40,618 nucleotides of DNA from an uncultured Gemmatimonadota bacterium (GCA_964490075.1 CAZBBK010000011.1:62001-102618); one strand, 5' to 3'; shown: positions 795 through 18,064, counted from the first letter of the stretch. Program-made: numbers and translations. The notes: generated by a model from the letters alone, not told the origin.

Positions 795-1664
795 ATGGCT
801 CGAAAAGAGCGAGAGTGGCTGAGCACGGGGCAAGCAGCCGAGCTTTGCTCCGTGACCTCGGACACCGTCCTGAAGTGGATCCGCAAGGGCCACATCTCGG
901 GGATCCGCACCGCCGGCGGGCATCACCGAATTGCGCGCGCCGAAATCGAGGGACTGCTGCGCTCGCGCTCGGCCGCCGCCAGCACGCCGCAGCCGCCTCC
1001 CGTCGCCGGCCCTTCCTCCCCCCTGCGTTGCTGGGAGTATCTCGGCGGCACCAACGGCGTCCGCGAGGAGTGCACGCACTGCTCGATCTATCACGTGCGC
1101 GCCGGATGGTGCTTCGCGATGGCCGGGATGGGCCTCGACATCGACCATTCCCGCCAACTCTGTGCCAGCTCCTGCCAGGACTGCGTCTACTACCGGCGGG
1201 TCATGAACCTGCCGACCCAGGTGCTGCTGGTCTCACGCGACGACCAGCTCACCCAGTCGCTCTCCGAGGCCACGGTCGAGGGCCTCAGCCTGCGCGTGGC
1301 CGCCAGCGGCTACCAAGCATCCACCACGATTCAGAGCTTTCGTCCGGCGTTCGCGATCGTCGACGAAGCGCTGATCAGGTCCGGGGAAACCGACTTGCTG
1401 CGCCACCTGGCGCGCGACCCACGGCTGTCCGGCCTGAAGATCATCCTCGCGGTTCCGAAGGGACGGACGGAACGGAAGAGGGACCAGACGAGGCCGGAGT
1501 TCCTCGTCAGCAGCATCGAGAAGCCGTTCGAGCTCCGAGAGGTCCAGGAGATCATCGAACGCTTCCCGGTCGAGTCCTTGCAGGCGCCGGACGCCGAGAC
1601 GCCGGTCGCCCTGCATCCAGGAGGCAGTGCCGATGCCGAACCTACCCTCCGAGCCTCTGAATGA
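795..1664 (+). CDS. Excisionase/MerR-like HTH regulator with central Cys-rich domain and C-terminal receiver-like domain
   Basis: N-term WLSTGQAAELCSVTSDTVLKWIRKG..RTAGGHHRI (excisionase-type HTH); middle CWEY..CTHC..WCF..CASSCQDC; C-term VLLVSRDD..AIVDE..IEKPF receiver pattern. Confidence 0.8.
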   Translation: MARKEREWLSTGQAAELCSVTSDTVLKWIRKGHISGIRTAGGHHRIARAEIEGLLRSRSAAASTPQPPPVAGPSSPLRCWEYLGGTNGVREECTHCSIYHVRAGWCFAMAGMGLDIDHSRQLCASSCQDCVYYRRVMNLPTQVLLVSRDDQLTQSLSEATVEGLSLRVAASGYQASTTIQSFRPAFAIVDEALIRSGETDLLRHLARDPRLSGLKIILAVPKGRTERKRDQTRPEFLVSSIEKPFELREVQEIIERFPVESLQAPDAETPVALHPGGSADAEPTLRASE

Positions 1665-1950
1665 GGATCTGGACGCCGAAGGTTACTTGAAGGAGATGGC
1701 GAGCTGGACCCGCGCGCGGGCCGAGGAACTCGCCGAGGCCAACGATATCGGTCCCCTGACCGACCAGCACTGGCAAGTGATCGAGTTCGTCAAGGACTAC
1801 TACCAGACCTACGGCCGGGGCCCCGCCGTGGTCAGAATCGGCAAGGAGACCGGCCTCAGGGCCACCACGATCTGCGATCTCTTTCCCTGCGGCGTCGTGA
1901 AGGGCGCCTACCGTCTCGCGGGGCTGCCGCGCCCCCCGGGATGTGTCTGA
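1627..1950 (+). CDS. TusE/DsrC/DsvC-family sulfur relay protein (terminal Cys only)
   Basis: LDAEGYL..W..LTDQHWQVIEFVKDYY..LFP..AGLPRPPGCV; GGAGG RBS just upstream of GTG 1627/ATG 1633; overlaps regulator 3' end. Confidence 0.92.
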   Translation: MPMPNLPSEPLNEDLDAEGYLKEMASWTRARAEELAEANDIGPLTDQHWQVIEFVKDYYQTYGRGPAVVRIGKETGLRATTICDLFPCGVVKGAYRLAGLPRPPGCV

Positions 1951-2010
1951 GCCGGAGACGACTGTCGCAAGCGCGGCCAACTCGCATGCAGTGAACAAAG
2001 GAACGAGTGG

Positions 2011-2730
2011 ATGGAAGCCGTACGATTTCTGGTGGGAGCGATCCTCCCCTATCTGGCGCTCTTGGTGTTTGTATTCGGAATGGTGTATCGAATCAGGACC
2101 TGGCTCAAGCTACCCGCGCCGGCGATGACGCTGACCCCCGCACCGCCCACCGAGGGGGACAACAAGAGCAACGTCTTGATGGAGACGTTTTTTTTCAGGA
2201 GCCTTTTCAAGGGCGACCGTGGCTTGTGGCTGCTGGCCTGGGTGTTCCACGTGGTGCTGGCATTGATCTTCGTCGGCCATTTGCGTGTATTCACCAACAT
2301 CGACGCCCTGTTCATGGGACTGGGCATGAGCGAACAGGCGATCCAGGGCATGTCCAGCGGGGCCGGCGGAGCGGCGGGCATCATCATTTTGATCACCCTT
2401 GGCGTGCTGATCCTGAGACACGTGGCGATTCCCCGGGTGCGCGAGATCACCGGCTTCGCGGACTACGCGGCGCTGCTGCTGATCGTCGCGATCATCATCA
2501 CCGGCAATTCGATGCGCTTCGGTGCGGAGCACTTCAACTTGGCGCTCACCCACGAGTACTTCAAGAGCCTGGCGACATTCGGCAACATCATGGGCTCTCC
2601 AGCCCTGCGAAACTCGACCTTCCTGGTGCACATGCTGCTGGCGTTGCTGTTAGTCATGTTCATGCCCTTCAGCAAGATCCTCCACTTCGGTGGGATCTTC
2701 TTCACCCACCAAATGATCCGCAAGCACTAG
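2011..2730 (+). CDS. DsrM/NarI-like di-heme cytochrome b membrane subunit
   Basis: About 5 TM helices; His pairs WVFHVVLALIFVGH and LVHMLL..PFSKILH typical of the nitrate reductase gamma/DsrM family; directly upstream of a DsrK-like gene. Confidence 0.88.
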   Translation: MEAVRFLVGAILPYLALLVFVFGMVYRIRTWLKLPAPAMTLTPAPPTEGDNKSNVLMETFFFRSLFKGDRGLWLLAWVFHVVLALIFVGHLRVFTNIDALFMGLGMSEQAIQGMSSGAGGAAGIIILITLGVLILRHVAIPRVREITGFADYAALLLIVAIIITGNSMRFGAEHFNLALTHEYFKSLATFGNIMGSPALRNSTFLVHMLLALLLVMFMPFSKILHFGGIFFTHQMIRKH

Positions 2731-2745
2731 CAGGAACGGGAGAAC

Positions 2746-4080
2746 ATGATGACGGAGAACGACGTCAAGCAAAAGGTGGTGGACTCGATCAGAGCCATCG
2801 ACAAAGGCCCGCGGGCGATGCAGATGTACATGGAGATGTGTACCAAGTGCGGCACCTGTGCATCAGTCTGTCCGGTCTACTACGGCAAGGGCGAAAAGCG
2901 TTACAACCCGGCGGAGCGTACCGACCTGATCCGGCGCGTCTATCGCAAGTACAACAGTTTCGCCGGCAGGGTCTTCGGGCGTCTCGCGGGGGCCGAGGAC
3001 TTCGATCCGGCGGTGCTGGGTGAATGGTCCAAGATCTTCTACGAGTGCACCGGCTGCCGGCGCTGCGCCGTCTTCTGCCCCTTCGGCATCGATCACTCGG
3101 TGATCACCCGCAAGGGCCGGGCGATTCTGGACCAGACCGGATACACGCCGGAGACGATGAAGAAGGTGGTCGAGATCTCGCTAGAGACCGGCAACACCGA
3201 CGGTGCCTCCAAGCAGGCCTTCATGGCCGCCGTCGACTTCCTCGAGGAGGAGATGCAGGACGAGCACGACGTCGAGATCAAGATCCCGGTCGACGTGAAG
3301 GGCGCGGAGTACTTCTACGTGCCGCCCTCCGGCGACGTGCTGGTCAATCCCGAGGCCACCATGGGCGTGGCCAAGGTGTTCCACGTGCTGGGCATGGCCG
3401 ACAAGTGGACCATGAGCTCCAAGTGCTTCGATGGGGCGAACTACGGCCTGTTCACGGGCGACGATGCGGCGATGAAATCCGACAACAAGCTGTACGTGGA
3501 CGAGGCCAAAGCACTGGGCGCCAAGGTGCTGCTGATGGGCGAATGCGGCCATGCCCATCGCATCATGAAGATGATGATGGAAAAGGCCGGTTGGTGGGGC
3601 GAGCTGCCCTTCGAGGTGACCAACTGCATGCAGTGGACGGCGGAGCACATCGAGGCCGGCCGGCTGCAGTTCGACAAGAGCAAGAACCCGCAACGAGTGA
3701 CCTATCACGATCCCTGCAACTTCGGGCGCTCCTGCGACATCACCGAGGAGCCGCGGGCGATCCTGGAGGCGGCCTGCACCGACTTCCAGGACATGGCACC
3801 CAACCGCCACGAGAATTGGTGCTGCGGCGGAGGCGGAGGCCTGTCGGCGATGGACGACATCCACGACTTCCGGATGTCGATATCGGGGACCAAGAAGATG
3901 GAGCAGGTGCGCGACACCGAGGCCCGCTACGTGGCGACCGCGTGCTCGAACTGCAAGCGCCAGCTCACCCAGCTGATGGAGCACCACGAAGAGGAGATCG
4001 AGGTCGGCGGGGTGCACGACATGCTCTCGCGGGCCATCCTGGTGAACGGAAAGGCGGCGGTGCGGCAGGACTTCACCTGA
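2746..4080 (+). CDS. DsrK/HdrD-like (Fe-S)-binding oxidoreductase with CCG domain
   Basis: Two ferredoxin motifs CTKCGTCASVCP and CTGCRRCAVFCP; ECGHA; YHDPCNFGR; CCGGGGG; ACSNC. Confidence 0.9.
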   Translation: MMTENDVKQKVVDSIRAIDKGPRAMQMYMEMCTKCGTCASVCPVYYGKGEKRYNPAERTDLIRRVYRKYNSFAGRVFGRLAGAEDFDPAVLGEWSKIFYECTGCRRCAVFCPFGIDHSVITRKGRAILDQTGYTPETMKKVVEISLETGNTDGASKQAFMAAVDFLEEEMQDEHDVEIKIPVDVKGAEYFYVPPSGDVLVNPEATMGVAKVFHVLGMADKWTMSSKCFDGANYGLFTGDDAAMKSDNKLYVDEAKALGAKVLLMGECGHAHRIMKMMMEKAGWWGELPFEVTNCMQWTAEHIEAGRLQFDKSKNPQRVTYHDPCNFGRSCDITEEPRAILEAACTDFQDMAPNRHENWCCGGGGGLSAMDDIHDFRMSISGTKKMEQVRDTEARYVATACSNCKRQLTQLMEHHEEEIEVGGVHDMLSRAILVNGKAAVRQDFT

Positions 4081-4190
4081 TCGGGCGGCGCCTGATACTC
4101 TGAAAGAGAGCCGCGGCGCGACGTCGGGCAGGTCCATGTAGGGCACGCCCCGCTTCAGGGGCGAGCCCCCACCTTTCCGGAGTCGACACC

Positions 4191-4853
4191 ATGACCGACG
4201 CGCCCGCGGAGAAAGTGGCGTTCGGGGGCCATATCTACACTCTCGACCACTATGGATTCCTCGATCCGCCAGAGCAGTGGAACGAAGCGTTCGCGGAAGG
4301 AATGGCGCGCACGCTGGGGATCGAAGGCGGGCTGAGCGCCCGCCACTGGGAGATCGTCCATTATCTGCGCCACAAGTTCCTGGACGAGAGCACCGTCCCG
4401 GTGCTGGTCGAGGCCGCCGCCGACAACCGGATGCGACTCTCCGAGCTCAAACGACTCTTCCCCACCGGCTACCATCGCGGGGCGTGCAAGATCGCCGGTA
4501 TCAACCAACGCTTCATGTTCGAGACCAACTACTGGTTGACCTACGAGACCGCGCCGCCGCCGAAGCCCCGTTTCGAGCTCGACCCGATGGGTTTCCTGAA
4601 GAGCGCCGACGCCTGGGACGAGGACTTCGCCGAGCTCGCCCTGGCACAGCTGGAGCCGCCCCTGGCCCTGACCGAGCGCCACTGGCAGGTGATCCGGTAT
4701 CTGCGCGACTTCTACGGCGAAAACCACACCATTCCGACCATCTACCAGACCTGCAGCGCGTGCGATCTCGATCTCGACGAGTTGCGCACGCTCTTTCCGG
4801 CCGGCTACCGGCGCTGCGCCTGCCGCGCCGCGGGGCTGCCCTTCCACGGTTGA
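4191..4853 (+). CDS. Tandem two-domain TusE/DsrC-family protein
   Basis: Two copies of LDxxGFL..W..HWxxxxYLR..LFPxGY..AC..AG (LFPTGYHRGACKIAGI and LFPAGYRRCACRAAGLP); GGAG RBS. Confidence 0.88.
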   Translation: MTDAPAEKVAFGGHIYTLDHYGFLDPPEQWNEAFAEGMARTLGIEGGLSARHWEIVHYLRHKFLDESTVPVLVEAAADNRMRLSELKRLFPTGYHRGACKIAGINQRFMFETNYWLTYETAPPPKPRFELDPMGFLKSADAWDEDFAELALAQLEPPLALTERHWQVIRYLRDFYGENHTIPTIYQTCSACDLDLDELRTLFPAGYRRCACRAAGLPFHG

Positions 4854-4862: not shown

Positions 4863-7800
4863 CTACCTACCCTCGCCGTTTTCCTGGAGCACCAGCGCCC
4901 GCAGCTCTTCGAGGGTGAGCTCGGCACCGAACACCTCGGCCGCCCCCAGGGTTCGGTCGACCAGGTCGCGCTTGTTGCGTTGCAGCTCGAGGATCCTCTG
5001 CTCGATGGTGCCCGCGGCGATCAGCTTGTAGGCGATCACCTTGCCGATCCGGCCGATGCGGTGCGCGCGATCGGTGGCCTGGCTCTCGACCGCGGGGTTC
5101 CACCAGGGATCGAGATGGAAGACGTAGTCGGCGCGGGTCAGATTGAGGCCGGTGCCGCCGGCGCGCAGACTGATCAGGAAGAGCGGCGGCCCGCCGGATG
5201 ACTGGAAACGCTCGATGCGCCGCCCCCGCTCCTCGCGCGGCGTGGAGCCGTCGAGACGGACGAAGTCGATCCCCAGCTTCGCCAGCAACTCCTCGATCCG
5301 ATCCAGGTAGGAGGTGAAGCTCGAGAAGAGCACCGCGCGGTGTCCCTCTTCGACGATCTCCGGCAGCTGCTCCTCGAGCGCCAGCGACTTGGCGGTGTCG
5401 AGCAATGAGAAGGGGCGCGCGATGTCGACCAGGCCCGGATGGCAGGCGGCCTGGCGCAGGCGGGTGAGGGCGGCCAGCACGTGGGCGCCGGAGCGCGCCA
5501 GGCCGCGGCTCTCGATCTCGCTGCGCAGCCCGCTGCGCACCTGCTCGGCGATCTGCCGGTAGGCGGCCTCGTGCCCCGGCGGCAAGGGCAGACGCAGCTC
5601 GACCTCGATCTTCTCGGGCAGATCGGGCGCCACTTCGTCCTTGACGCGGCGCAGCAGGAAGGGGCGCAGGCGCCGCTGCAGGCCTTGGGTCGCGCGCTCG
5701 CCGCCGGCGGCGATCGGCTCCGCGAAACGCCGGCGGAAGGCCTCCCTGGAGCCCAGCAGTCCGGGCACCACCAGCTCGACGATGGCCCGCAGCTCGCCGA
5801 GGTGGTTCTCGATCGGAGTGCCTGTCAGGGCGAAGGTCGACTCCGCGCGGATCGCCCGGGCACAGCGCGCCGACTCGGTGTTCTCGTTCTTCAGGAACTG
5901 GGCCTCGTCGACGATGAAGGTCCGCCAGTCGATCTCGGCCAGCCGCTCGCCGTAGAGACGCAGGCCGGCGAAGCTGCAGACCACCAGATCGACCTGTGCG
6001 GCGCGGGCGCGCTCCAGCACCTGCTCCTGGGTACGGCCGCTCAAGAGCTCGAGGCGCAGATCCGGCGTCATGGCGGCCGCCTGGTCGCGCCAGCCCAGCA
6101 CCACCGAAGCCGGCGCCGCGATCAGACAAGGAGCGGGGCCGAGCCGGGTGTTCTGGTCGAGCAGCAGGGCCAACGCCTGCACGGTCTTGCCCAGGCCCAT
6201 GTCGTCGGCCAGCACACCGCCCAGACGATGCTCGGCCAGGAAGGACATCCAGGCGACGCCTTGCGCCTGATAGGGGCGCAGCCGGGTCCGCAGACCGGGA
6301 TGGGGCGCGTCCGTGATCGACTGAGCGGTCCCGGACAGGCCCTGCGCCAGGTCGGCGAGGCGCTGGTCGTAGCCGATGTGGACGCCGTGTGAGTGGGCGG
6401 CCGGAGGAAGCAGGCCGAGGCGGCTGCGCGGGGCCCGAAAGCGCCGCGGCCGGCTCTCCTGTGCCGGAAGCGGCACCAGGTCGAGCTCGTCCAGCACGTC
6501 GAGCAAGGGATCGAGCCGCGGGTCGCCGGCATCGAGCTGTCCGGACCCTTCCGCCGGCAGGTAGCGCAGACCCTCTTGCCGCGCCGCCCGCAGGCGCTCG
6601 AAGTCGAGCGCCCGGCCGTCGGCCGACGCCTGTACCTCGATCTCCACCAGCTGGTCGTCCGCGCCCTCGCGCACCGCGACCTCGAGCTCGATCGCGGTGC
6701 CGAGCAGACGCCAGCGATCGATTTCACCGTGCTCCTCGATGCTCCAGCCCGCGCCCAGCTCGTCGCCCAGCGAGCGGTTGACCAGATCGACGGCCCGGTC
6801 GCCGCGGACCCGGCACTGCCCTTTGCGGTCGAGCGCCAGGCCGGCATCGACCAGGGCCTGCAAGCAAAGCTGCTCCGCCGCGCCGTCGCGCGGAACCCAC
6901 AGATTCTCCCCCGGCGATCGGCCGACCACCCAGCCAACATGGGAGCGGCGGCTCAGCGGCTCCTCCCAGCCCTCGTTCGGGCTGCCGTTGCGCTCGGCGC
7001 GGGGCGCCGCCTCGATCCCTCCGTAGTCGAGCGTGAGCGCCACCAGGATCTCCGCGGCGCCGGCCTCGAGTCGCACGATCGGCCGCGGCCGCCGCGCCGG
7101 CGCCAGGCGCTGCCCGCTCGGTCCGTGGACCACCAGCGCGCGCGGCAGCTCATCGCCACCGAAGAGCAGCCGGCCCGCTTCGTCGTCGCTCAAGCGTGCG
7201 CCGTCGCGAAGGGTGATCGCCAGCCGCGCGGCGGCAGGATCGAGCGGGTGGATGGTGCGACCGATCAGTGCCCAGGCTGGGATCCCGCCCACCGGGCGCC
7301 CGGCCGGGGGCGCCTCCCCCGCGCCCACCGCGGCCGTGGCATGGAAGCAGCGCTCCCGCTCCACCAGCTCGATCTCTACCCGCGCCGAGTCGGCCGACCA
7401 GAGCAGCCGCTGGTCGCTGCGATCGACCATCCGGGCGGTGCCGGCCATGGCGGCCAGACAGCCGCCGGCCGCCCGGGAGGCCACCCGAATCCGGCCGTCG
7501 TCGCAGATCTCCCCCATCGCCACCAGCGACGCCAGAGCCTGCAGATCGATCGCTTCCAGGTCGCCGCTCTCGCCCTCCGAGAACAGACCCGAATCGAGCT
7601 CGGCGGCATCGGCCAGCCCGGCGCGCAGACGCTCCACGCAGTGCCGCGCTTCCAGCGTCTCACCCGACTCGGCGCGCAGCTCGACCCGCAGTGCGCCGTC
7701 GGCGGCGAGGTCGATTCGGTAGGTCGGCCCCACGGTGGCGGCGCCGATTCGAACGTTGCGCCCGGGGAAGGACTCGCCGCTGCTCGGGCGCGGCTCCTGG

Positions 7801-8480
7801 AGGGCGGGGGCCGGAGCATCCGCGGGATCTTGCGCCAGTGCCACGGCGGCGCTGTGCACACACCATTCGCCGCGTGCCACCAGGCAGGAACAAAGCGGCT
7901 CCCAGCCTTGCTCACCGCGCCGCAGCGTCACCTGCAGGGGCCGCCCCTCTCCGGCCACCTGCGCCTCGACCAGCCCCGCGGCGCCGCGCCGGACCCGCAC
8001 CCGAGGCGCCAGGTCCCGGGCCGCATGGACCATCCAGGTCGGCAGCGTGGGAGCCGCGGAGATGGCGGGCGCGGTGGGCGGCGGCGCGGTGCGGGAGGCG
8101 CGTGGCGCGGCGGGCCTGGCCGGGCGCTTGCGGGGCGCCGAGCGAGGCGCGGCCGCGGCCCCGCGGCGGCCGATCTCGCTCTGATGGGGCACCTGGTCGA
8201 GGCTGCGCACGGCCAGCGCCACGGCATGATCGCAGGGCCGGCGGCTGCCCGGGCGGCAGGTGCAGCGGGTGACCAGGACCCCGTCCTCGACCCGGATTCG
8301 CGTGGTCTCCGCACGCCGCCCGCGCGCCGAGCGCACTCGGCCCTCGACTCCTTCGGCTTCGACCTCCGACTGCAAGACCCTGCGGGTGGCGGAATCGAGA
8401 TCGACCCGCAGCCGGGCCGGGCAGGAATCGATGAACGAGCGCAGATGGGCAAAGAGGGGCGGGCTTGGGGCACGGGTCAC
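4863..8480 (-). CDS. SNF2-family helicase/ATPase with N-terminal SWIM zinc fingers
   Basis: ADDMGLGKT, DEAQFLKN, LTGTPIEN, SLRAGGTGLNLT, WWNPAVESQATDRAHRIG; SWIM motifs CTC..CDH and CSC..CVH. Confidence 0.93.
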   Translation of the reverse strand: MTRAPSPPLFAHLRSFIDSCPARLRVDLDSATRRVLQSEVEAEGVEGRVRSARGRRAETTRIRVEDGVLVTRCTCRPGSRRPCDHAVALAVRSLDQVPHQSEIGRRGAAAAPRSAPRKRPARPAAPRASRTAPPPTAPAISAAPTLPTWMVHAARDLAPRVRVRRGAAGLVEAQVAGEGRPLQVTLRRGEQGWEPLCSCLVARGEWCVHSAAVALAQDPADAPAPALQEPRPSSGESFPGRNVRIGAATVGPTYRIDLAADGALRVELRAESGETLEARHCVERLRAGLADAAELDSGLFSEGESGDLEAIDLQALASLVAMGEICDDGRIRVASRAAGGCLAAMAGTARMVDRSDQRLLWSADSARVEIELVERERCFHATAAVGAGEAPPAGRPVGGIPAWALIGRTIHPLDPAAARLAITLRDGARLSDDEAGRLLFGGDELPRALVVHGPSGQRLAPARRPRPIVRLEAGAAEILVALTLDYGGIEAAPRAERNGSPNEGWEEPLSRRSHVGWVVGRSPGENLWVPRDGAAEQLCLQALVDAGLALDRKGQCRVRGDRAVDLVNRSLGDELGAGWSIEEHGEIDRWRLLGTAIELEVAVREGADDQLVEIEVQASADGRALDFERLRAARQEGLRYLPAEGSGQLDAGDPRLDPLLDVLDELDLVPLPAQESRPRRFRAPRSRLGLLPPAAHSHGVHIGYDQRLADLAQGLSGTAQSITDAPHPGLRTRLRPYQAQGVAWMSFLAEHRLGGVLADDMGLGKTVQALALLLDQNTRLGPAPCLIAAPASVVLGWRDQAAAMTPDLRLELLSGRTQEQVLERARAAQVDLVVCSFAGLRLYGERLAEIDWRTFIVDEAQFLKNENTESARCARAIRAESTFALTGTPIENHLGELRAIVELVVPGLLGSREAFRRRFAEPIAAGGERATQGLQRRLRPFLLRRVKDEVAPDLPEKIEVELRLPLPPGHEAAYRQIAEQVRSGLRSEIESRGLARSGAHVLAALTRLRQAACHPGLVDIARPFSLLDTAKSLALEEQLPEIVEEGHRAVLFSSFTSYLDRIEELLAKLGIDFVRLDGSTPREERGRRIERFQSSGGPPLFLISLRAGGTGLNLTRADYVFHLDPWWNPAVESQATDRAHRIGRIGKVIAYKLIAAGTIEQRILELQRNKRDLVDRTLGAAEVFGAELTLEELRALVLQENGEGR

Positions 8481-8502
8481 GGCGATTGCTGGGGCACTGG
8501 GC

Positions 8503-8537
8503 TTGCGGTCGATGGGGAAAAAAGTACGATCTTAGCA
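8503..8537. promoter_or_regulatory. Possible overlapping divergent promoters (SNF2 / amidotransferase)
   Basis: Minus strand extended -10 TGcTAAGAT (8537-8529); plus strand TTGCGG (8503-8508)-N16-TACGAT (8525-8530) in an AT-rich patch. Confidence 0.35.
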
Positions 8538-8577
8538 ACCGCGCCCCAGAGAGCCCCAGCGATTCCGGCCGATCCCG

Positions 8578-9288
8578 ATGTCTCATCAACCCCTCCTGAT
8601 TCTCGATTGCACCGTCAGCCCAGCCTCGGGCCGGGTCTTCGAAGATGCCGTCCTACGCCTGGCCCCGCCCGGCCTGGACAGCGTGGTGCTGCGCATGGCC
8701 GACTCGGCGGGTCCCGCCGCTCTGGCCGAGCGAGCCGCGCGGCTGGTCCCCGCCGCCCTGCTGATCTCGGGAAGCGAGGCCGGAGTGCACGAGGGCCGGC
8801 CCTGGGTGCGCATCCTGCGGGATCAGCTGCGGGTGCTCACCGCGACCGGTCTACCGACGCTGGGCATCTGCTTCGGTCACCAGATCCTGGCCGCGGCATG
8901 GGGCGGAGAGGTCGAGACTCCACGGCCGGCGCGGAAGGTGCGCGGCATCCGGGCATTGCGCATCACCGACCCCAGCGCGCGGTGGCTCGGCGGCGACACG
9001 ATCGAGGCGTTGGTCAGCCACACCGACCAGGTGGTCGCGGCACCGCCGGGGTGGTCGGTCGCGGCCTGCTCCGACTACTGCCCGATCCAGGCTCTGAGCG
9101 CCGGGGATCTGCCGATCGTCGGCGTGCAGTGGCATCCCGAGGCCGATCGCGCCTTCATCGAGGACAATCCGGAGCCCGATGCCGGGCACCCCTGGAACCG
9201 CCTCGACCAGAGCAGCCTGGCGGCGCTCGGCGGCGTGGAGGTGCTGCGGGCGTTCCTTGCCCATCCCGATACCCGGCCGCCCTGCTAG
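8578..9288 (+). CDS. Class I (type 1) glutamine amidotransferase-like protein
   Basis: ISGS, LGICFGHQ nucleophile elbow, QWHPE triad motif. Confidence 0.9.
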   Translation: MSHQPLLILDCTVSPASGRVFEDAVLRLAPPGLDSVVLRMADSAGPAALAERAARLVPAALLISGSEAGVHEGRPWVRILRDQLRVLTATGLPTLGICFGHQILAAAWGGEVETPRPARKVRGIRALRITDPSARWLGGDTIEALVSHTDQVVAAPPGWSVAACSDYCPIQALSAGDLPIVGVQWHPEADRAFIEDNPEPDAGHPWNRLDQSSLAALGGVEVLRAFLAHPDTRPPC

Positions 9289-9354
9289 GATGCCGCCTAT
9301 GTCCCCGTGCGGCGCGCCACCGAGCGCGCCGCCCCCGCCCCGCAGGAGAAGACC

Positions 9355-11190
9355 GTGAGCAAGCTCGCCATCCGCCTCAGCTCGATCGCCTGGGCCGCCG
9401 CCGCGGCAGCAGCCGGCTGGTCGGTCGGCCTGGAGCGTGTGCTGCCGGCGACTTTCGGTGCGGGTGGGCGATCGACCGGCGGCGGCGATCCGGGCGAGTT
9501 CGCACTGGCCACAGCGGTCGCGCTCTTGCTGGCCCCGCTGCTGCTGCCCCCCCTGCTGGCGCGCCGCGATCGAACGCCGCCCCCAGGCGCCCCAACCCAG
9601 GCCCCGCTGGCGGCCGCCGCGGTCGCGTGGTGGGTGTTCGCCGCCGGCCAGGTCTGGGTGAAGAACCATCCCCTGGTCGATCGCGCCCGCAGCATCGAGG
9701 GGCTCGGTCTGGAGCTGAGCGTGCTGGTGCGCGCCGCCGGTCTCGGCGCCTGCGTGGGCGTGCTGGTATACTTTCTGGTCGTCCGCGTGCGAATCGGGCG
9801 CCTGCTGCGTCCCCGCGCCCTCCTGGTCGTGCTTCTGTTGCTGGCACTGCTCGGCGCCTGGACCCTGCACGGCCGCACCACCACCTCCCAGGCCCGGGCG
9901 CTGGCCACCTACCGCGAAGCCACGCCGCGCGCCGACTACAACGTGCTCCTGGTCACCCTCGACACCCAGCGCGCCGACTACCTGGGCTGTTACGGGGCCG
10001 AGGTCTCGACCCCCCATATCGACGCCCTGGCGCGCGCCGGCGCCCAGTTCGACCGCGCCTACAGCACCACCAACGTCACCATGCCCTCGCACGCCACCAT
10101 CCTGACCGCGCGCTGGATGAAAGAGCACGGCATGGAATCGAACTTCTCCCCGCCCCTCTCCGCGTCGAACCTGACCCTGCCCGAGATCCTGCACGAGATC
10201 GGCTACGCCACCGGCGCCTTCACCAGCCTCTTCATCCTCGACGGCGGCTACTCGGGATTGATGCAAGGCGTCGATACATGGTGGGCACCGGAGCGGGGCT
10301 TCACCGCGTCGGAAGAGGCCTTCACGCGCGCCGCCGTGTGGCTGGAGTCGGTCGCCGACCGGCGCTTCTTCGCCTGGGTCCACAGCTACGACGTGCATCG
10401 TCCCTACGAGCCCGTGCCGCCCTACGACACGCTCTACTACCAGGACGTGCCCGACGACCCGGACAACCTCTCGTTCACGCGCATCCCCAGCTTCCATCCG
10501 CGTCCCTTCGGTGTCACCGACATCGACTACCTGCCGGCGATGTACAAGGGCGAGACCAGCTACCAGGACGAGCAGCTGGGTGTTCTCTTCGCGCGCATGA
10601 AGGAGCTGGGGATCTTCGACAACACCCTGATCGTGCTCACCGCGGATCACGGCGAGAGCCTGGGCGAGCACGATCTCTTCTACAGCCACGACGCCCTCTA
10701 CGAGGAAGACGTGCGGGTGCCCTTGATCCTCCACGCGCCAGACCTGGTGCCGGCCGGGCTCCGCTCCGGCGCCCTGGTGCAGACCATCGACCTGGTGCCG
10801 ACGGTGCTCGAGCTACTCGGCCTGCCGCCTCTCGAGCTGGCCTCCGGCACCAGCCTGGCGCCGCTGCTCTCCGACCCAGCGGCGCAAGTGCGCAGCCACG
10901 CTTTTCTGGAAGGCAAGAGCTACCGCGCGCTGGGCATCGTCGACTCGACCTGGGCCTTCATCCACCCGCTGAAGGATATGGTACCCAACCACAACGTCGA
11001 GCTCTTCCGCATCGCCGACGATCCGCAGCAACTGCGCAACCTCTTCTACAGCGAGCGTCCGGTCGCGGAGCGGTATCTCGACCTGGCCCAGGAGTTCAGC
11101 GGACGGCGCATCCGGCTCGGCAAGGCCGCCAAGAGCGGCGTCCGGCCGACCGTCAGCCAGCAGCTCAACGCCTTGGGCTACGTCCAGTAG
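9355..11190 (+). CDS. Membrane-anchored sulfatase-like hydrolase/transferase (alkaline phosphatase superfamily)
   Basis: N-terminal TM helices then [44 protein letters not shown]; start chosen at GTG 9355 behind GGAG (ORF open from 9307). Confidence 0.85.
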
Positions 11191-12799
11191 CGCCGCGCTC
11201 GAGGCCCTCCGGCGTGGTCGCCAGCGCCGCGAAGGCGCGGGCGTAGATCCGCAGGTTGCGGCTCAGCGCCCGGCGCGAGATGAACTCCGGGTCGGCGTGG
11301 TACTGGGCCTCTTCGCCCAGCGCCGGCTCGGCGGGGCCGAATCCGACCGTGAGCGCCTCGGTGCCGGTGAAGGCCTTGGCGTAGGTGGTGCCGCCGATGC
11401 AGCCGGGCTCCGCGTCGCGTCCGGTCTCCTCGCGGTAGGTTTCGATCAGGATGTCGATCCAGGGATGGCGGGCGCTGCTCGCAAAGGCCTCGAAGCCCTC
11501 GCCGCCGACGGTCTCGATGGCGATCGCGCGCTCCGGGGCGAGCGCGGCGCGCAGCCGCGCCCGCAGCGCGGCGAGCGGCCACTCGTTGGTGGGACGGATG
11601 TTGAGCACCGCGCGCAGCTCCTCGCCGCTGGTCTCGATCGTCCCAAGGTTGACGCTGGTCGCCCCCAGGCAGGGCATCGTCGACGCGATGCCCAGTCCCG
11701 CGCCGCGTGCATCGACCCGCGCGGCAAGCACGCGCAAGAGCCGCCGCCAGTCTCCCGTCACCAGCTCCGCCTCGATGGCGATGCGCGCCAGCGGCGCAAC
11801 CGCGTTGCGCCCGGCTTCCGGGGTCGATCCGTGGGCCGCCTTGCCGCGCATCTTCAGCGTCACCTCCTCGTCGCGCCGCGTCACCTCGAAGGAGAGTCCC
11901 CTCCCCTCCCCCGTCAGACGCGCCGCGCGCCGCTCCAGGTCGCGTGCCAGCTGCTCCCCTCGACCCTCGCGAGCCTGGGCCACGAGCGACGCCTCGGCCG
12001 CCACCACGTTCGCGGCGCTGCCCCCTTCCAGCGAGCTCATCCGCGGCAGCTTGGCGCGACCTCCGCCGCCCGCGCTCAGCGCCAGGTCCAGGTAGCCGCG
12101 CTCCCCGATGGTCAACGGGAAGTCGCCGTCCACCACCAGCGCCAGCTCCGGCGCCTCGCGCTCCGCCAGCAGTCCCTCGATGCCCCGCCAGTCGGTCTCC
12201 TCGTCCATGCCGATCACCAGGAGCGGCTTGCGGGTCAGGATCGCGCCGCCCTCGCGCAGCGCCGCCAGGGCGTAGAAGGCTGCTGCCACCGCTCCCTTGT
12301 CGTCCAAGGTGCCGCGGCCGAAGAGGGTATCGCCCCGCACCTCCCCCGCGAAGGGCGGCGCCGGCCACGCCGCGAGATCGCCCACTGGCACCACGTCACC
12401 GTGCGCCAGGACCCAGAAATCGGGAGCCAGCGCCCGCCCGTCGAGACCGACCAGGAACACGTGGTCCTCGTCCAGTCGCTCGAAGCTGAGCTGCTGCTCG
12501 CTCGCCGCCCGCTCCAGCCGATCGCCGAAGGCGCGCCGGGCGGCGGCGTCGCCGGCCAGGGTCGGAATCCGCACCAGGTCGCGCAAGAGCACCTCGGCGT
12601 CACTCTCGAAGCGACTCTGGGCCAGGTCGGCCACCGCCTCGGGGTCGCGCACCACGGTCTCCATGAAGATCGGCGTGGCGGCGGTCGAGGCGCTACCGGC
12701 GGCACCTCTGGGAAGCGGCTGCGGGTCGCCGGGAGCCGCCGCGGCGGCGCACGGGATCAAGAGACCGAGGGCGAGGACGGTGGAAGGCGGGCGCATCAT
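11165..12799 (-). CDS. M20 family metallopeptidase (PepV/Sapep-like) with predicted signal peptide
   Basis: [44 protein letters not shown]; hydrophobic N-terminus. Confidence 0.88.
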
Positions 12800-12803
12800 G
12801 GGG

Positions 12804-13823
12804 CTAGGGCTCCTCGTGGTGGAAATCGCGCAGTACCCGGGCCAGCCAGGGCAGCGAGCGGTCGAAGCGGTAGGAAAGACCGAAGTGGTCGTCGGCGAAC
12901 TCCTCGTGGATCACCGCGACGCCGCGCCTCCGCAGGCGCGCCACCACCTGCCGGGCCCCGGCGTAGAGCCGAAACTGGTCGGCGGTGCCGCAGTCGATGA
13001 AGATCCCCGCGCACTCCGCGGCGCGGCAGCGCTCCGACGCGGCGATGCGCACCGGATCGTGCTCCAGCCAGCGCTCCCAGACCTCCGGGCGCAGCTCGCC
13101 GGTCCCCGGGTCGAAGGGCAGATCGATCCCCATCTCGGCCGCGGGATTCGGCGAGTAGGCCGCGGCCATGCCGAGCACGTTGATCACCGCGTGGTCGCCC
13201 GAGCCGTGTTTCGGTCGAGCCCGGAACTCCTCGAACCAGGCCGCCGGCCCGCCGGCTTTCTCGAAGGCCACCAGTGCGTGCGGGAAATCGGGCAGGTAGC
13301 AATACTCGAAGGCCGCGTCACCGGAGTGGCAGGCGCAGGCCTGGAAGAGATCGGGACGCAGCATCGCCAGGCGCAACGCCGCGTAGCCGCCCGACGACTT
13401 GCCGGCGACTCCGCGCGCGCCCTTGCCGCGGTAGCGACGAGCGACCTCCGGCAGCAGCTCCTCGGTCAGATAGCTCTGGTAGCGCCCGGTGGCCGACGAA
13501 TCGAGATACTGGCTGCCGCCCAGCGCCGTCATGCAGTCCGGCATCACCACGATCGCCTCGTCCATCGCGCCGCTCGCGATCAGGCGATCGAGGCGCTCGG
13601 GCAGGGTCTCGCCCCAGGCCGATTCGTGCAGCATCATGCGCCCCTGGCCGGTGAAGCCGGCCAGCACGAAGATCGTCGGGTAGCTCCGTTCCGGCTGCGT
13701 GTCGTAGGAGGGCGGCAGATAGACCGGCGTGGCGCGCCGGGTCGGATCGCCCAGGGGATTGCCGGCCAGCAGCGCGCTCTCGAGCTCGAAGAGCTCGACG
13801 CGGCCTTGGCTCTGCTGGGTCAT
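12804..13823 (-). CDS. Putative esterase (alpha/beta hydrolase, Fes/antigen-85-like esterase family)
   Basis: [15 protein letters not shown] nucleophile motif, IDCG..D, DDH; ATG 13823 follows GAGGAG RBS. Confidence 0.85.
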
Positions 13824-13962
13824 GCGGGCTCCTCGGAAAAGAGGGAGATGCGACGGGTGAAGCAGGATCGCCGCTCCGCGGGGGGGATGCAAGATCTGGA
13901 GGGGCGACCGGGGTTTCGATTCAGCGGCTGCCTACGCGGAGAGCGCCGGGAGCGCCTCCCAT

Positions 13963-14033
13963 CGTGCCCCTGCCCTGCCCCGCCCCTGTCATTGCCCGAT
14001 TCCCGCCGCCGGACCTGGCAGGGCACGGGCACG
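13963..14033. repeat. Long intergenic inverted repeat (REP-like stem-loop)
   Basis: CGTGCCCCTGCCCTGCC (13963-13979) pairs with GGCAGGGCACGGGCACG (14017-14033) at 16/17 positions, 37-nt loop. Confidence 0.65.
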
Positions 14034-14203
14034 CGGCGGTCCCGCGCTCGGGTGGCGCCCGCCCCGCCTCACGCACCAATACTGGCGAGATTCAGCAGCG
14101 CACCGACCATGTACAGAAGAGAACCAAGTTATGCTGGTGGCTGCAACTTCCTCTTCCCGTGTCGAGCCCGCCCCGCCGAACCCCTCCGCACAAGCGTAAT
14201 CCC

Positions 14204-16147
14204 ATGACATCAAAGCACTTGTTCTGCACACTCGCGAGCCTCGCGCTGGCCGCGCCCGGCCGCGGCGCAAGCACCCCGAGCAGTGCTCCCCCGCCCACCG
14301 GGCAGATCGAGAGCGCGCCCCTGTTCCAGCTTCCCGACGGCCTGCGCAAGTACAACGTGCTGATCTGGGCCCTCGACACCACCCGCGCCGACCATTTCGG
14401 CATCTACGGCTACCACCGCGACACCACCCCCTTCATCGACCAGCTCGCCGAGCTCGGCCTGCGCTGGGACAACTACACCACCTCGTCGACCTGGACCTGG
14501 CCCAGCGTGGTCAGCATGATGAGCAGCCTCACCGTCCCGACCCACAAGACCCTGGCCTCGTCGCTGGCGATGCCGCGCGGCTGGGCCAGCTTTCCCGAGA
14601 TCCTCGAGCCCTTCGGGTACCAAAGCGTTCTGGTCTCCAGCAACCACCTGCTCACCGACCTGGGGCGCCAGCTCTCCGACCGTTTCGATGTCTCCGTGGC
14701 CACCCTGCGACCGGACGAAACCCTGACCGACGTGGTGATCGACGCCATTCGCGATCCCGCTGGCCGCCCCTTCTTCATCCACGCCCAACCGGTGGCCGGT
14801 CATGCCCCCTACGTCTGCCCGCCGCCCTTCGACTCGCTCTTCGTCGACGATGCCTTCTACGGCGGACTGGGCGATCTGCCGAAGATCAACGACTCGGAGA
14901 ACTGCGACGGCGGGATGCAGCGCTCGGTGGTCATCGATTCCATCCTCTCCATGGACTGGTACGTGGCCCAGTACGACGGCCTGATGGCCTACATGGACTA
15001 CCAGTTCAGCCGGATCTACGAGGCCATCGAGGACGAAGGCCTGATCGACTCGACCCTGATCGTCATCACCGCCGATCATGCCGAAAACCTCGCCGGCGAT
15101 CACAACTACTATTTCTGCCACACCGACCAGTACCAGTCGAACATCCGCCTGCCTTTCATCGTTCTGCTGCCCGAAGAGGTGCAAGAGGCGCGCGGACCGC
15201 TGCGCAACCTGGCGCTCGGCGGGCTGCCCAACCACATCGATCTCCTGCCGACCGTCCTCGACCTGCTCGGCGTCGAGACTCCGGCCCAGGCCCAAGGGCG
15301 CAGCCTGATCGAGCTTCCGCAACCCGATCGGCGCATCGGACACAACCACCTGGGCCGCTCCTACCAGGAAGGCAACTGGAAGGTCGTGCAGAAGAACGAA
15401 AAGGTCGAGCCGGGGCCGGATACCGGGCTCTACGACATCGCCGCCGACCCCGACGAGCAGAACGACCTCTCCGGACCGATGACGGCGCTGCGCGACTCGC
15501 TGGAGGCGATCATGCTCGGCATCACCCTCCAGCTCGAGGCGATCCAGCCCCCCTTCTACCCCACCGGCGACCTCTACCACAGCGATCTCAACGACCCCGC
15601 GGAGACCGACGAGTTCTTCTACGTGAGCGGCAAGATGCGCCTGGTGGAGGACTACGGCTGGGGCTTCATCTACGAAGACCCCGACAGCAACCGGGTGATG
15701 TACGGCCAGTCGCCGCCCGGCGAGCCGGAGAATCTGCGCATGCCGGGCTCGCTGATCGAGGAGATCCTGCCCGACTACAACCTCTCGTTGCGCATGCAGC
15801 TGAACGAGGGCATCGGCTACCTGGGGCTCTCGGCGTTGGGCAAGTTCTTCTACAGCAACTTCGAGTTCCGCCCCGGATACCTGGTCACGATCGAGCCGGA
15901 CTCGATCGGTCTGGGGAGCTACCTGCCCGATGGTGAAAATGTCGACGCGGGGCGGGTCGCCTACCCCTTCGGCCTCGACGCCTGGCAGGAGATCGTGGTG
16001 ACCAACGACGGCGACACCGTGACCGTCAACATCGGCGGCCGCGATCTCTTGAGCATTCCGACCCACCAAGGCATCGCCGGAGCGACCTACTTCGGCCTCG
16101 CGATGGGCTCGGAGATGCGCGTCGACGATATCCGCGTCTGGCGCTAA
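14204..16147 (+). CDS. Secreted sulfatase-like hydrolase with C-terminal beta-rich (lectin/ConA-like) domain
   Basis: Signal-like MTSKHLFCTLASLALAA; NVLIWALDTTRADH, WTWPSVVSMMS, GHAPY, TADHAE, LYDIAADPDE; ORF open from 13964 but ATG 14204 gives the signal peptide. Confidence 0.82.
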   Translation: MTSKHLFCTLASLALAAPGRGASTPSSAPPPTGQIESAPLFQLPDGLRKYNVLIWALDTTRADHFGIYGYHRDTTPFIDQLAELGLRWDNYTTSSTWTWPSVVSMMSSLTVPTHKTLASSLAMPRGWASFPEILEPFGYQSVLVSSNHLLTDLGRQLSDRFDVSVATLRPDETLTDVVIDAIRDPAGRPFFIHAQPVAGHAPYVCPPPFDSLFVDDAFYGGLGDLPKINDSENCDGGMQRSVVIDSILSMDWYVAQYDGLMAYMDYQFSRIYEAIEDEGLIDSTLIVITADHAENLAGDHNYYFCHTDQYQSNIRLPFIVLLPEEVQEARGPLRNLALGGLPNHIDLLPTVLDLLGVETPAQAQGRSLIELPQPDRRIGHNHLGRSYQEGNWKVVQKNEKVEPGPDTGLYDIAADPDEQNDLSGPMTALRDSLEAIMLGITLQLEAIQPPFYPTGDLYHSDLNDPAETDEFFYVSGKMRLVEDYGWGFIYEDPDSNRVMYGQSPPGEPENLRMPGSLIEEILPDYNLSLRMQLNEGIGYLGLSALGKFFYSNFEFRPGYLVTIEPDSIGLGSYLPDGENVDAGRVAYPFGLDAWQEIVVTNDGDTVTVNIGGRDLLSIPTHQGIAGATYFGLAMGSEMRVDDIRVWR

Positions 16148-16166
16148 TTCTTGCGGGCGTAGGTTG

Positions 16167-16193
16167 TTGACCGCTCGCCGGCGATCTGGTCAA
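16167..16193. promoter_or_regulatory. Imperfect palindrome upstream of the glucan locus (candidate operator/promoter)
   Basis: TTGACC-gc-TCGCCGGCGA-tct-GGTCAA; left arm resembles a -35 hexamer. Confidence 0.4.
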
Positions 16194-16238
16194 ATCGCGG
16201 GGCTCTCGCCCGTCCCCAGCCTCCACCGGAGGGCCTCA

Positions 16239-18038
16239 TTGCGCCGCCTCCTCCCCGCCGTCCTCTGCGCTCTGTCGACCGCCAGCGGCTGTTTCCATGA
16301 CCCCACGTCGACCGATGAAGGAGGCGGCCCCTACCGCTTCGAGCTGCGCGCGCCGGGCGCCGACTCGGTGTTCGTGGAGGGCAGCTTCAACCAATGGGCG
16401 CCGCGCGATCCCGAGTGGCGGATGGACTGGGTGGAGGGCTCCGATTCGACCCTGCAGGCGATCGAAGCCGACCACCTGCCGGAGCGCTTCTCCTACCACT
16501 ACGCGGTCTACGCCCAGGGGCGCGAGGGGCGGATCGAAGACCCCTTCGGCACCGCCAGCGGCGATCTGCGCCTCGATCCCTTCCAGACCCGGGTCGATCG
16601 CGGCCTGACCCCGCCGCGCCCGCTGCCGGCGCCGATCGATCCGAGCCGCCTGGTGATCTACGAGATGCTGGTCTCCGACTTCTCCGCGGGAGGCGGCTTC
16701 GCCGAGGTGGTGGAGGCGCTGGAGGGCGGGGATCACCCCCTGGTCGAGCTCGGCATCAACGCCCTCGAGCTGATGCCGGTCCACCCGGTTCCGGGCGACT
16801 TCTCCTGGGGTTACGACTGCGGCTCGCACTGGTCGGTCGACCCCGGATACGGTGGGGCACGGGGCCTGCGCGACCTGGTCGACGCCTGCCACGCGCGCGG
16901 CATCGCGGTGCTGCTCGACGTGGTGCTGAACCACTCGGGCGGCCATCACCCGATCTCCGAGCTGGAGTGGCTCACCGGTCGCTACTACTACTACGACCCC
17001 TCGAAGGAAAACGCGTTCGGCCTGCCGGAGTACGACTGGGACAACGCCGACCTGATCGACTACTTCGTCGAGGGGCTGGCGCATTTCATCGAGGACCTGG
17101 GAATCGACGGCTTCCGCTACGACTTCGTCGAGGGCGAGGCTTACTCCGACTGGGCGAAAGTGGTGCTGCCGCTGAAAGAGCGCTTTCCGGAGACCTTTCA
17201 CATCGCCGAGAGCTTCGACTCCAGCGGTGGGGCGCTCGACCCCGCGATCGGCTTCGACGCCCAGTGGGGCGGCCAGTCCTCGTCCTACGGCGGATCGGTC
17301 AACAACTATCACCAGCGGCTCAACGCCAACCTGGCCGAGTCGGCCTATGTCAACCGCTACGGCGGCGTGATCGGCACCTTCTCGCCCGATGCCTCGCCGA
17401 TGCTGGCCACCGCCGACGTCACCGAGTTCCACCCCGGGCGCGGCTCCTGGCGCGATATCAAGTACCTCGAGAGCCACGACGAGCGGCGCGTGGTCGAGCA
17501 GGTCGAGGGCTCGGGATCGTCGGCGGCGCGCGCCATCGGCGGGCTGCAGAAGTCGCGGCTGGGCGCCATCAGCCTGATGACCTGCGTCGGCATCCCGCTG
17601 CTCTACCACGGTCAGGAGATCGGGGTGGACAACCCAATCGCGGCCGATCCGGCCCCGAGCCCGATCGACTGGACCGCCGGCGACGCGTCACTGCGCGACC
17701 ACTACCGCCATTTGATCGAGCTCAGGCTCGGCGAGCCGGCGTTGGCTTCCGACGCCATCGAGTTCCTGTGGGCCGCCGGCAGCGCGCCTTCGGCGCCCGA
17801 CGAGACCGCGCGCATCCTGCAGTACCTGCGCGGCGAGGAGGGCCAGGAGGTGCTGGTGCTTCTCAACTTCGACCACGAGGAGCACCAGGTCGTGGCGCGA
17901 TTTCCACGCCAGGGGGCCTGGGCGCTCTTCGATCCAGCAACCGGCGGCCGCGACGAAACCCTCGAGGTTCCGCCAGGCGGCGAGGTCGAGGTGCTGGTGC
18001 CCGCCTCCGACGGCCTGATCTACCTGAACCCCTCGTGA
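16239..18038 (+). CDS. GH13 alpha-amylase family glycosidase with N-terminal CBM48-like domain, probable lipoprotein
   Basis: VFVEGSFNQW (CBM48-like), IYEM, ELMPV..SWGYD, DVVLNH, GFRYD, AES, LESHDE; lipobox-like TASGC; TTG 16239 behind GGAGG. Confidence 0.88.
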   Translation: MRRLLPAVLCALSTASGCFHDPTSTDEGGGPYRFELRAPGADSVFVEGSFNQWAPRDPEWRMDWVEGSDSTLQAIEADHLPERFSYHYAVYAQGREGRIEDPFGTASGDLRLDPFQTRVDRGLTPPRPLPAPIDPSRLVIYEMLVSDFSAGGGFAEVVEALEGGDHPLVELGINALELMPVHPVPGDFSWGYDCGSHWSVDPGYGGARGLRDLVDACHARGIAVLLDVVLNHSGGHHPISELEWLTGRYYYYDPSKENAFGLPEYDWDNADLIDYFVEGLAHFIEDLGIDGFRYDFVEGEAYSDWAKVVLPLKERFPETFHIAESFDSSGGALDPAIGFDAQWGGQSSSYGGSVNNYHQRLNANLAESAYVNRYGGVIGTFSPDASPMLATADVTEFHPGRGSWRDIKYLESHDERRVVEQVEGSGSSAARAIGGLQKSRLGAISLMTCVGIPLLYHGQEIGVDNPIAADPAPSPIDWTAGDASLRDHYRHLIELRLGEPALASDAIEFLWAAGSAPSAPDETARILQYLRGEEGQEVLVLLNFDHEEHQVVARFPRQGAWALFDPATGGRDETLEVPPGGEVEVLVPASDGLIYLNPS

Positions 18039-18064
18039 TGCGCCATCGAGAGACGAGGAAGCAG

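Follow-up and report, generated by a model that had tools for sequence, protein, structure and literature searches.

DsrC and DsrMK act where sulfate and sulfite respiration ends and energy is conserved, a step whose regulation is poorly known. In canonical DsrC the penultimate cysteine (CysA) sits on a flexible C-terminal arm and a second cysteine (CysB) lies ten residues before it. According to a cryo-electron microscopy (cryo-EM) preprint, only the CysA arm comes near the DsrK cluster, a CysB mutant still grows, more slowly, with the CysA-bound intermediate remaining a substrate of DsrMKJOP, and Cys329, His331 and Asp500 of DsrK are conserved (10.64898/2026.08.25.746951). The conserved non-ligating cysteine of DsrK is part of a T/GECGH motif, and Archaeoglobus fulgidus DsrK homologues of dsrMK arrangements keep Cys, not Asp, as the last CCG residue (PMC10861901); the authors of the preprint propose the GECGH cysteine as a sulfur relay. 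Paralogues of dsrMK are reported to be common among sulfate reducers (PMC6018796). TusE-type proteins are described as occurring independently of DsrAB, with Ala, Ser or Thr in place of CysB (PMC3397948). For the one-cysteine DsrC of Desulfurella amilsii, it has been proposed that the cysteine of a DsrE-like protein compensates in trans (PMC6378623). Here we describe a five-gene module which encodes two non-canonical DsrC-family proteins next to a DsrMK paralogue. It lies in a stretch of 40,618 nucleotides (the window) from an uncultured Gemmatimonadota bacterium (GCA_964490075.1 CAZBBK010000011.1:62001-102618).

The module comprises, all on the + strand, a DNA-binding regulator (REG), a single-domain DsrC-family protein (DsrC-Y), DsrM', DsrK' and a tandem DsrC protein (window 795-4853). 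An original prediction, made from the sequence alone, proposed that DsrC-Y supplies CysA and the tandem protein CysB, and that a di- or trisulfide between the two is the substrate of the DsrK protein. Our analysis shows that DsrC-Y and the tandem protein represent distinct lineages within the DsrC/TusE family, each of them conserved, which travel with DsrM'K' and REG. The complementary, conserved cysteines and the frequent synteny of the two genes thus stood up, the CysA-CysB bridge as a mechanism did not, and it is the less likely mechanism. The module is real and widespread, a variation on the DsrC/DsrMK theme that has apparently not been described.

The two DsrC-family proteins and their module

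DsrC-Y matches the Pfam DsrC family PF04358 (E 3e-26) and TIGR03342 (83.3 bits, cut-off 53.5), and its family profile aligns end to end with the solved DsrC structures 1ji8, 2xsj_C and 2v4j_C. Its true start is probably the ATG at 1633; GGAGG at 1620-1624 precedes it and the resulting 105 residues are the usual length of homologues. The C-terminal end reads KGAYRLAGLPRPPGCV. Translation of the open reading frame (ORF) and the structure-based alignment agree with the original prediction that CysA is kept (Cys106, codon TGT, 1942-1944) and that the CysB position is occupied by tyrosine (Tyr95, codon TAC, 1909-1911). The additional cysteines it had noticed in TICDLFPCG are Cys83 (TGC 1873-1875) and Cys88 (TGC 1888-1890). 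In the profile alignment the CysB position is that of Tyr95, the Ser of FPSG corresponds to Cys88 and the Tyr of IYxLF to Cys83. The turn immediately preceding the helix on which CysB normally sits has one of these two cysteines on either side. In an AlphaFold2 (AF2) model with a mean predicted local distance difference test score (pLDDT) of 64.9, Cys83 ends helix 79-85, Cys88 lies in the loop 86-89, Tyr95 is within helix 90-97, and an unstructured arm follows (98-107). The arm motif, ..GLPRPPGCV in the window and GLPRPxGC across the family, stays near the canonical DsrC arm.

A search of 5.8 billion proteins, with relatives counted as protein clusters, returned 356 relatives of DsrC-Y (E <= 1e-8, among 364 candidates). 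Cys83, Cys88 and CysA are present in all of the 120 best homologues. Position 95 is Tyr in 114 of these, Phe in five, Asp in one and never Cys. An independent set, the loci found via the tandem protein alone, contains 39 complete DsrC-Y copies; all three cysteines occur in 39/39, with Tyr (36) or Phe (3) at position 95. The Tyr seen in 79/80 loci seeded with DsrC-Y itself is circular, as the seed patterns contain Tyr and the FPCG cysteine, and was excluded from the conservation evidence. Base 1910, on which the Tyr codon depends, is covered by contigs of runs X1 (possibly the source sample) and X3 with zero differences, which confirms the sequence only. A search for RNA runs gave none, and four DNA runs of a single study turned up. 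On homologue conservation and the contigs of the two runs, a sequencing error or private mutation at this base, which the original prediction had named as refuting it, was rejected. Tyr is a trait of the family, and the cysteine pattern of DsrC-Y is a lineage trait.

The tandem protein likewise matches TIGR03342 in two stretches (108.9 bits). Its AF2 model has a pLDDT of 87.9, and Foldseek retrieved single-domain DsrC structures only, each matching one domain (TM 0.73-0.83, target-normalised). As originally predicted, both domains keep CysB and the CysA arm is missing: Cys99 is found in GACKIAG (4485-4487), Cys211 in CACRAAG (4821-4823), and the protein terminates in GLPFHG. Cys188 (4752-4754) is a further cysteine of the family. 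The same search gave 623 tandem relatives (E <= 1e-10, among 955 candidates). Among the best 120, Cys at both CysB positions was found by pattern in 116, the other four being pattern misses or truncations, and a Cys within the last eight residues in none (0/120). The tandem cysteine pattern, too, is a lineage trait. The window copy has Ala76 in place of a family Cys, and it has extra Cys191 and Cys209 (CSAC, RRCAC) which are absent from most relatives, RRCAC being common to one other locus (L061). RspA represents a regulatory branch of the DsrC family in which the functional C-terminal cysteines are missing. The tandem protein may belong to this branch or lie near it.

The genes for DsrM' and DsrK' sit between those for DsrC-Y and the tandem protein. 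DsrM', paralogous to canonical DsrM, has the NarI fold and scores 95.2 bits against the DsrM equivalog NF038037, below its cut-off of 300. With the DsrK equivalog NF045796 (cut-off 400) DsrK' reaches 352.2 bits, compared with 734.4 for the canonical copy in this genome, to which it is 33% identical. It has a single CCG domain and the non-ligating cysteine of the T/GECGH motif. Its CCG motif ends in CxxC (ACSNC), that of the canonical DsrK of this genome in CxxD (MCAID), so that DsrK' does not have Asp in place of the last CCG Cys (Asp500). GECGH is present in DsrK' and in 68/68 distinct orthologues bearing the CCG motif; CxxC together with ECGH occurs in 61 of the 68, and the other seven show no CxxC pattern after CCG. 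The match of this GECGH to Cys329/His331 of A. fulgidus is by motif only. Sequence search of the PDB with DsrK' gave 9ojn_A, an iron-sulfur-binding reductase, as the sole match, and no DsrK structure.

REG matches HTH_17 (5.5e-10) and MerR (1.7e-6) in Pfam and an excisionase-type domain in NCBIfam. Its seven-cysteine stretch, RCWEY...C..C...C...C...C..C, is conserved. Atlas look-alikes fall into HTH_17 and HTH_17+Response_reg clusters, which serve as leads only. The REG stop codon overlaps the DsrC-Y start, and REG adjoins DsrC-Y in most loci. In all 50 longer DsrC-Y homologues (E <= 1e-15, among 606 candidates) REG and DsrC-Y form one protein in a single frame, or the gene call is an N-truncated version of such a protein; 41 of the 50 carry Pfam marks for HTH_17, MerR and DsrC, with one DsrC domain each. 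None of the 50 is a fusion of DsrC-Y to the tandem protein. At seven inspected loci the fusion was seen in frame, one of them confirmed by Pfam.

Table 1. Features of the window, with positions counted from its first nucleotide.
Feature	Position	Strand	Basis
REG, HTH_17/MerR-type DNA-binding domain, seven-Cys stretch and receiver-like C-terminal part	795..1664	+	Pfam, NCBIfam
DsrC-Y, single-domain arm-bearing DsrC-family protein	1627..1950	+	PF04358, TIGR03342, family profile
DsrM', NarI-type membrane cytochrome b-like subunit	2011..2730	+	PF02665 4.5e-20
DsrK', HdrD/DsrK-type iron-sulfur catalytic subunit	2746..4080	+	Fer4_8 and one CCG domain
Tandem DsrC, two armless DsrC domains	4191..4853	+	PF04358, two stretches, E 1.6e-39
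Rest of window: SNF2-family helicase, class-I glutamine amidotransferase, two sulfatases, M20 peptidase, TonB-dependent receptor, glycogen-phosphorylase-like protein, protein with peptidoglycan-binding domain	4863..40552		

The genome was surveyed beyond the window (95% complete, 136 contigs). Its full canonical dsr set lies on a contig other than that of the window, and therefore the window locus is an additional, paralogous system. The canonical DsrC ends in GACKVAGLPKPTGCV, and canonical DsrM and DsrK are followed by a gene for an iron-sulfur protein. A dsrA match of 578.6 bits adjoins a weaker sulfite-reductase-like match, and aprA is present. Neither DsrC-Y nor the tandem protein is encoded next to dsrAB here. 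A TusE-like gene with Ser at the CysB position is found on a third contig. A search for DsrD returned no match in this genome, and the control likewise matched no genome. No further sulfur-energy genes were found in the remaining window (4863-40552). The dsrA match (G000:C8:56211-57380, outside the window) contains one TAG within the matched stretch. The ORFs flanking the TusE-like gene (L002, G000:C19:65170-68469) resemble by eye a DsrE-type protein and a sulfide:quinone-reductase-type flavoprotein.

Distribution and co-occurrence

Loci were compared by local blastp in two sets, 80 seeded with the tandem protein and 80 with DsrC-Y; the sets share contigs and are not independent, and many loci are short contigs. 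Among the tandem-seeded loci, 60 have a tandem protein at least 44% identical (the linked clade) and 20 one at about 40% identity. DsrC-Y is present in 41 of the 60 linked loci and DsrM' plus DsrK' in 42; conversely, the 80 DsrC-Y-seeded loci contain the tandem gene in 49 cases and DsrM' plus DsrK' in 66. The usual gene order is REG, DsrC-Y, DsrM', DsrK', tandem, DsrM' coming after DsrC-Y in related loci too. In metagenome-assembled genomes (MAGs) labelled Gemmatimonadota the tandem gene is divergently transcribed, behind a second REG paralogue. Five further MAGs have DsrC-Y and tandem genes on separate contigs, as judged from accession prefixes. The module occurs in Gemmatimonadota, Planctomycetota, Zixibacteria, Latescibacterota, Myxococcota, Desulfobacterota, Acidobacteriota and others. 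The GTDB phylum of the source genome comprises only five genomes. The closest DsrC-Y relatives (83% and 82% identity) are in MAGs labelled Gemmatimonadota and Planctomycetota, and these labels point to transfer of the module genes or else to differing taxonomic labels.

The two proteins also occur apart. Whole-genome searches were performed for ten DsrC-Y genomes with no tandem gene at the locus: the tandem gene was found elsewhere in two and was absent in eight, including two records titled complete chromosomes (L125, L178). The L178 chromosome has an intact REG-DsrC-Y-DsrM'-DsrK' set and no tandem gene. Conversely, DsrC-Y was absent genome-wide in 9/9 genomes with a Cys-type tandem protein but no DsrC-Y at the locus; the best DsrC-Y matches in these nine are canonical DsrC, mostly adjoining canonical DsrM. 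Six loci have DsrM', DsrK' and the tandem gene without DsrC-Y. In two loci (L058, L063) stop- and frame-broken remnants of DsrC-Y are found upstream, behind a histidine kinase gene, and the tandem protein retains all four cysteines beside an intact DsrM'-DsrK' pair. A Phycisphaerales-labelled complete chromosome (L125 / L187) has DsrC-Y followed by merely a 125-aa fragment of DsrM', possibly a decaying copy of the module; the genome search of this chromosome returned no canonical DsrC.

Most of the checked genomes carry canonical dsrC as well. The canonical DsrCs of these genomes have three cysteines, namely the Cys of RKLCK, CysB and CysA. The tandem domains retain the RKLCK Cys and CysB, whereas DsrC-Y lacks both and has Cys83 and Cys88 instead. 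All four tandem cysteines (window positions 76, 99, 188 and 211) are Cys in 57/60 linked loci. The 20 loci of the more distant clade lie away from DsrM'K', except for one weak case (L082). There, Cys99 and Cys188 are kept in 20/20 loci and Cys76 in 18/20, and position 211 is Val or Ile in 20/20. In this clade a histidine kinase is encoded within two genes of the tandem gene in 3/3 loci examined.

Two side observations concern single tandem loci. At L079:3882-9560 two adjoining tandem copies of the CysB-less type have a [FeFe]-hydrogenase-like gene on one side and a GAF histidine kinase on the other. In an Elusimicrobia-labelled MAG (L056 / L118) the tandem ORF passes into an unrelated Arg/Ser-rich tail past the first domain, a sign that the second domain may have suffered a frameshift or an assembly error.

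In a quick tree (106 alignment columns, midpoint root) DsrC-Y (support 97) falls inside a group of arm-bearing proteins (support 100) that also holds canonical DsrC and the TusE-like proteins, and it is nearest to the latter (support 98). The N and C domains of the tandem protein form older groups separate from DsrC-Y. A recent duplication followed by complementary cysteine losses was therefore rejected as the origin of the pair, provisionally, given the short alignment and the midpoint root.

Possible roles of the module

We favour a reading in which DsrC-Y would act alone as the client of DsrK', into which its CysA arm would be inserted. On CysA it would bear a persulfide or a comparable sulfane adduct, or CysA would form a disulfide with Cys88 or Cys83 of the same protein; for resolution or stabilisation DsrC-Y might rely on these two cysteines, or might need no partner. 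DsrM'K' would connect the membrane quinone pool with the thiol or sulfane state of DsrC-Y, and REG, often in one polypeptide with DsrC-Y, would read that state. The module would thus serve, at least partly, to signal redox or sulfur status to dsr genes. The tandem protein, lacking an arm, would assist DsrK' as an accessory or relay and would not be an obligatory CysB donor, with Cys211 tied to DsrK' chemistry. This reading has in our judgement about an even chance of being right.

Several lines of evidence lead us to it. DsrC-Y never varies at Cys83, Cys88 and CysA and never has Cys at position 95, and an intact REG-DsrC-Y-DsrM'-DsrK' set exists with no tandem gene. In the reported canonical system only the CysA arm enters DsrK and a CysB mutant grows (preprint 10.64898/2026.08.25.746951), and DsrK' keeps the cysteine proposed as sulfur relay. 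The longer DsrC-Y homologues are fused to REG throughout and never to the tandem protein, and the quick tree places DsrC-Y among arm-bearing DsrC and TusE-like proteins and not among the tandem domains. Signalling genes also lie near the tandem gene, in the distant clade as described above and at a Gemmatimonadota-labelled locus (L006:6802-11691). There, the tandem gene is followed on its 3' side by genes for a Macro-domain protein and a 222-aa membrane protein that matches nothing in Pfam; next come a DsrK-like protein in which Fer4+CCG is fused to a response-regulator receiver domain, a histidine kinase with a PAS domain, and a response regulator of one domain. The corresponding place holds a DsrK-like ORF of about 600 aa in many loci.

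Other observations weigh against this reading. DsrC-Y and the tandem protein are, after all, syntenic in the majority of loci in both sets (41/60 and 49/80). The tandem cysteines are tied to DsrM'K' chemistry, since Cys211 is kept in the linked clade and lost in the unlinked one, and wherever both proteins exist an encounter with the CysA of DsrC-Y would still be possible. The AF2 model of DsrC-Y is only moderately confident and yields no distance from Cys88 or Cys83 to CysA. The fusions to REG occur mainly at Gemmatimonadota-labelled loci, and a regulator beside an operon is commonplace. The genomes studied are MAGs, whose incompleteness limits absence calls; the operon-level cases and the two complete chromosomes are independent of this limit.

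A bolder version makes DsrM'K' a membrane sensor instead of, or besides, a respiratory enzyme, within a DsrC-based signal transduction pathway in which the tandem protein serves as a second thiol relay. A DsrC domain contained in, or bound to, a DNA-binding regulator would have its CysA arm marked by DsrM'K' with the state of the quinone pool or of sulfane sulfur, and the tandem protein may transiently form a CysA-CysB mixed disulfide with DsrC-Y. Such a pathway would govern dissimilatory sulfur metabolism in many uncultured phyla. We put this forward tentatively, as a possibility with the balance tilted against it.

A purely bioenergetic explanation would need no signalling. DsrC-Y would be a TusE-like persulfide carrier that feeds a second quinone-linked reductase of DsrMK type, serving a sulfur substrate other than sulfite, REG would be a local transcription factor and the tandem protein structural. 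The abundance of dsrMK paralogues in sulfate reducers (PMC6018796), the last CCG Cys likewise kept by the dsrMK-type DsrK homologues of A. fulgidus (PMC10861901), and the full CCG domain and GECGH of DsrK' are all consistent with this, as are the position of DsrC-Y nearest to TusE-like proteins in the quick tree, the canonical DsrC in the checked genomes, and the dsrA match and aprA in this genome. However, a diffusible carrier fits poorly with fusion to a DNA-binding protein in 50 clusters. The CysB position of DsrC-Y is Tyr and not the Ala, Ser or Thr reported for TusE-type proteins (PMC3397948), its score with the TusE model is far below the cut-off, and no gene for a sulfur-substrate enzyme stands beside the module in this window. 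We consider this explanation doubtful.

The bridge between DsrC-Y CysA and tandem CysB, a protein-protein 'heterodisulfide' acting as the DsrK' substrate, draws on the complementary and conserved cysteine sets, the shared loci, the partner genes on other contigs in five further MAGs and two further genomes, the restriction of Cys211 to the linked tandem clade, and the conceptual precedent of trans compensation proposed for D. amilsii DsrC (PMC6378623). An obligatory bridge nevertheless fits badly, because of four things. The first is distribution: the tandem protein is missing in eight of the ten searched DsrC-Y genomes, two of them complete chromosomes, and DsrC-Y in all nine searched tandem genomes. 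The second is the decay of DsrC-Y: among the six loci with DsrM', DsrK' and the tandem gene alone, two hold broken remnants while every tandem cysteine is kept. The third is that CysB is dispensable for canonical DsrK action; the premise that DsrC needs both cysteines was too strong, as the reported CysB mutant grows and its CysA-bound intermediate is a substrate (preprint 10.64898/2026.08.25.746951). The fourth is that DsrC-Y has an invariant Cx4C of its own. The REG-only fusions point the same way, with no DsrC-Y-tandem fusion among the 50 longer homologues. Complex prediction for the tandem protein with DsrC-Y, run with alignments, gave an ipSAE of 0.00 in both runs, which weighs neither way on binding. 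We regard the bridge as unlikely.

Lastly, Cys83, Cys88 and Cys106 of DsrC-Y might ligate a metal or iron-sulfur cluster, with Tyr95 completing the site and no thiol chemistry, as the invariance of the three cysteines, the aromatic residue (Tyr or Phe) at position 95 in 119 of the 120 best homologues and the conserved seven-cysteine stretch of REG would allow, but Phe replaces Tyr in 5/120 and 3/39 copies so that the hydroxyl is not required, the GLPRPxGC arm is close to the canonical arm that enters DsrK, and no computed result indicates a cluster, which makes this very improbable.

As a sensor, the module would make dsr regulation open to testing; as an enzyme system, it would be an experiment of nature on the purpose of CysB that complements the recent cryo-EM mechanism. 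For annotators there is a warning in it: 'TusE/DsrC family' annotations in MAGs conceal at least two functionally distinct subfamilies.

Comparison with known systems

The tandem DsrC, the Tyr/Cx4C variant and the REG fusion are undescribed in the literature searched, a body that excluded Venceslau 2014, Pereira 2011 and supplementary files, all possibly relevant. Nor did literature searches return a description of a DsrMK paralogue combined with non-canonical DsrC genes and an HTH regulator. With canonical DsrC (2v4j_C, 1sau, 1ji8) DsrC-Y shares fold, length, the flexible C-terminal arm and the penultimate CysA. It differs in having Tyr or Phe at CysB, in lacking the 'LC' cysteine and in its new Cys83 and Cys88. 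Each tandem domain superposes on DsrC and keeps CysB and the upstream 'LC' cysteine of the canonical DsrCs of these genomes, but there are two domains with neither arm nor CysA, and a canonical DsrC is encoded elsewhere in the genome. A CysB ten residues before CysA is therefore found in neither protein: DsrC-Y has none, and the CysB residues of the tandem protein have no CysA partner. The C-terminal DsrC motif given for DiSCo, in the notation as we interpret it, is AGLPKPTG..C with one difference allowed (PMC8477390). Compared with this motif, in a reading that may be imperfect, AGLPRPPGC of DsrC-Y has two differences (K to R, T to P).

TusE resembles DsrC-Y in that, of the two canonical positions, DsrC-Y has CysA only. 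In contrast to TusE, DsrC-Y is linked to DsrM'K' and not to genes of the TusBCD/DsrEFH type. Against the TusE equivalog NF008562 (cut-off 191) DsrC-Y scores 56 bits and the tandem protein 82.2 bits, both below the cut-off. Nor does DsrC-Y show the TusE combination of Ala, Ser or Thr at CysB with occurrence independent of DsrAB, since it has Tyr or Phe and this genome has a dsrA match.

The one-cysteine DsrC of D. amilsii is comparable in lacking one conserved Cys and in standing beside a DsrMK without JOP. There, however, DsrC is encoded in the dsrAB operon and the proposed helpers are DsrE-like, while DsrC-Y coexists with a canonical DsrC and has extra cysteines of its own. The dsrMK paralogues (dsrM2K2; A. 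fulgidus dsrMK) come closest in their membrane and catalytic parts: a NarI-type subunit is paired with a DsrK-like protein which contains GECGH and whose single CCG domain has Cys as its last ligand. Here, in contrast, this pair comes with non-canonical DsrC-family genes of its own and with an HTH regulator.

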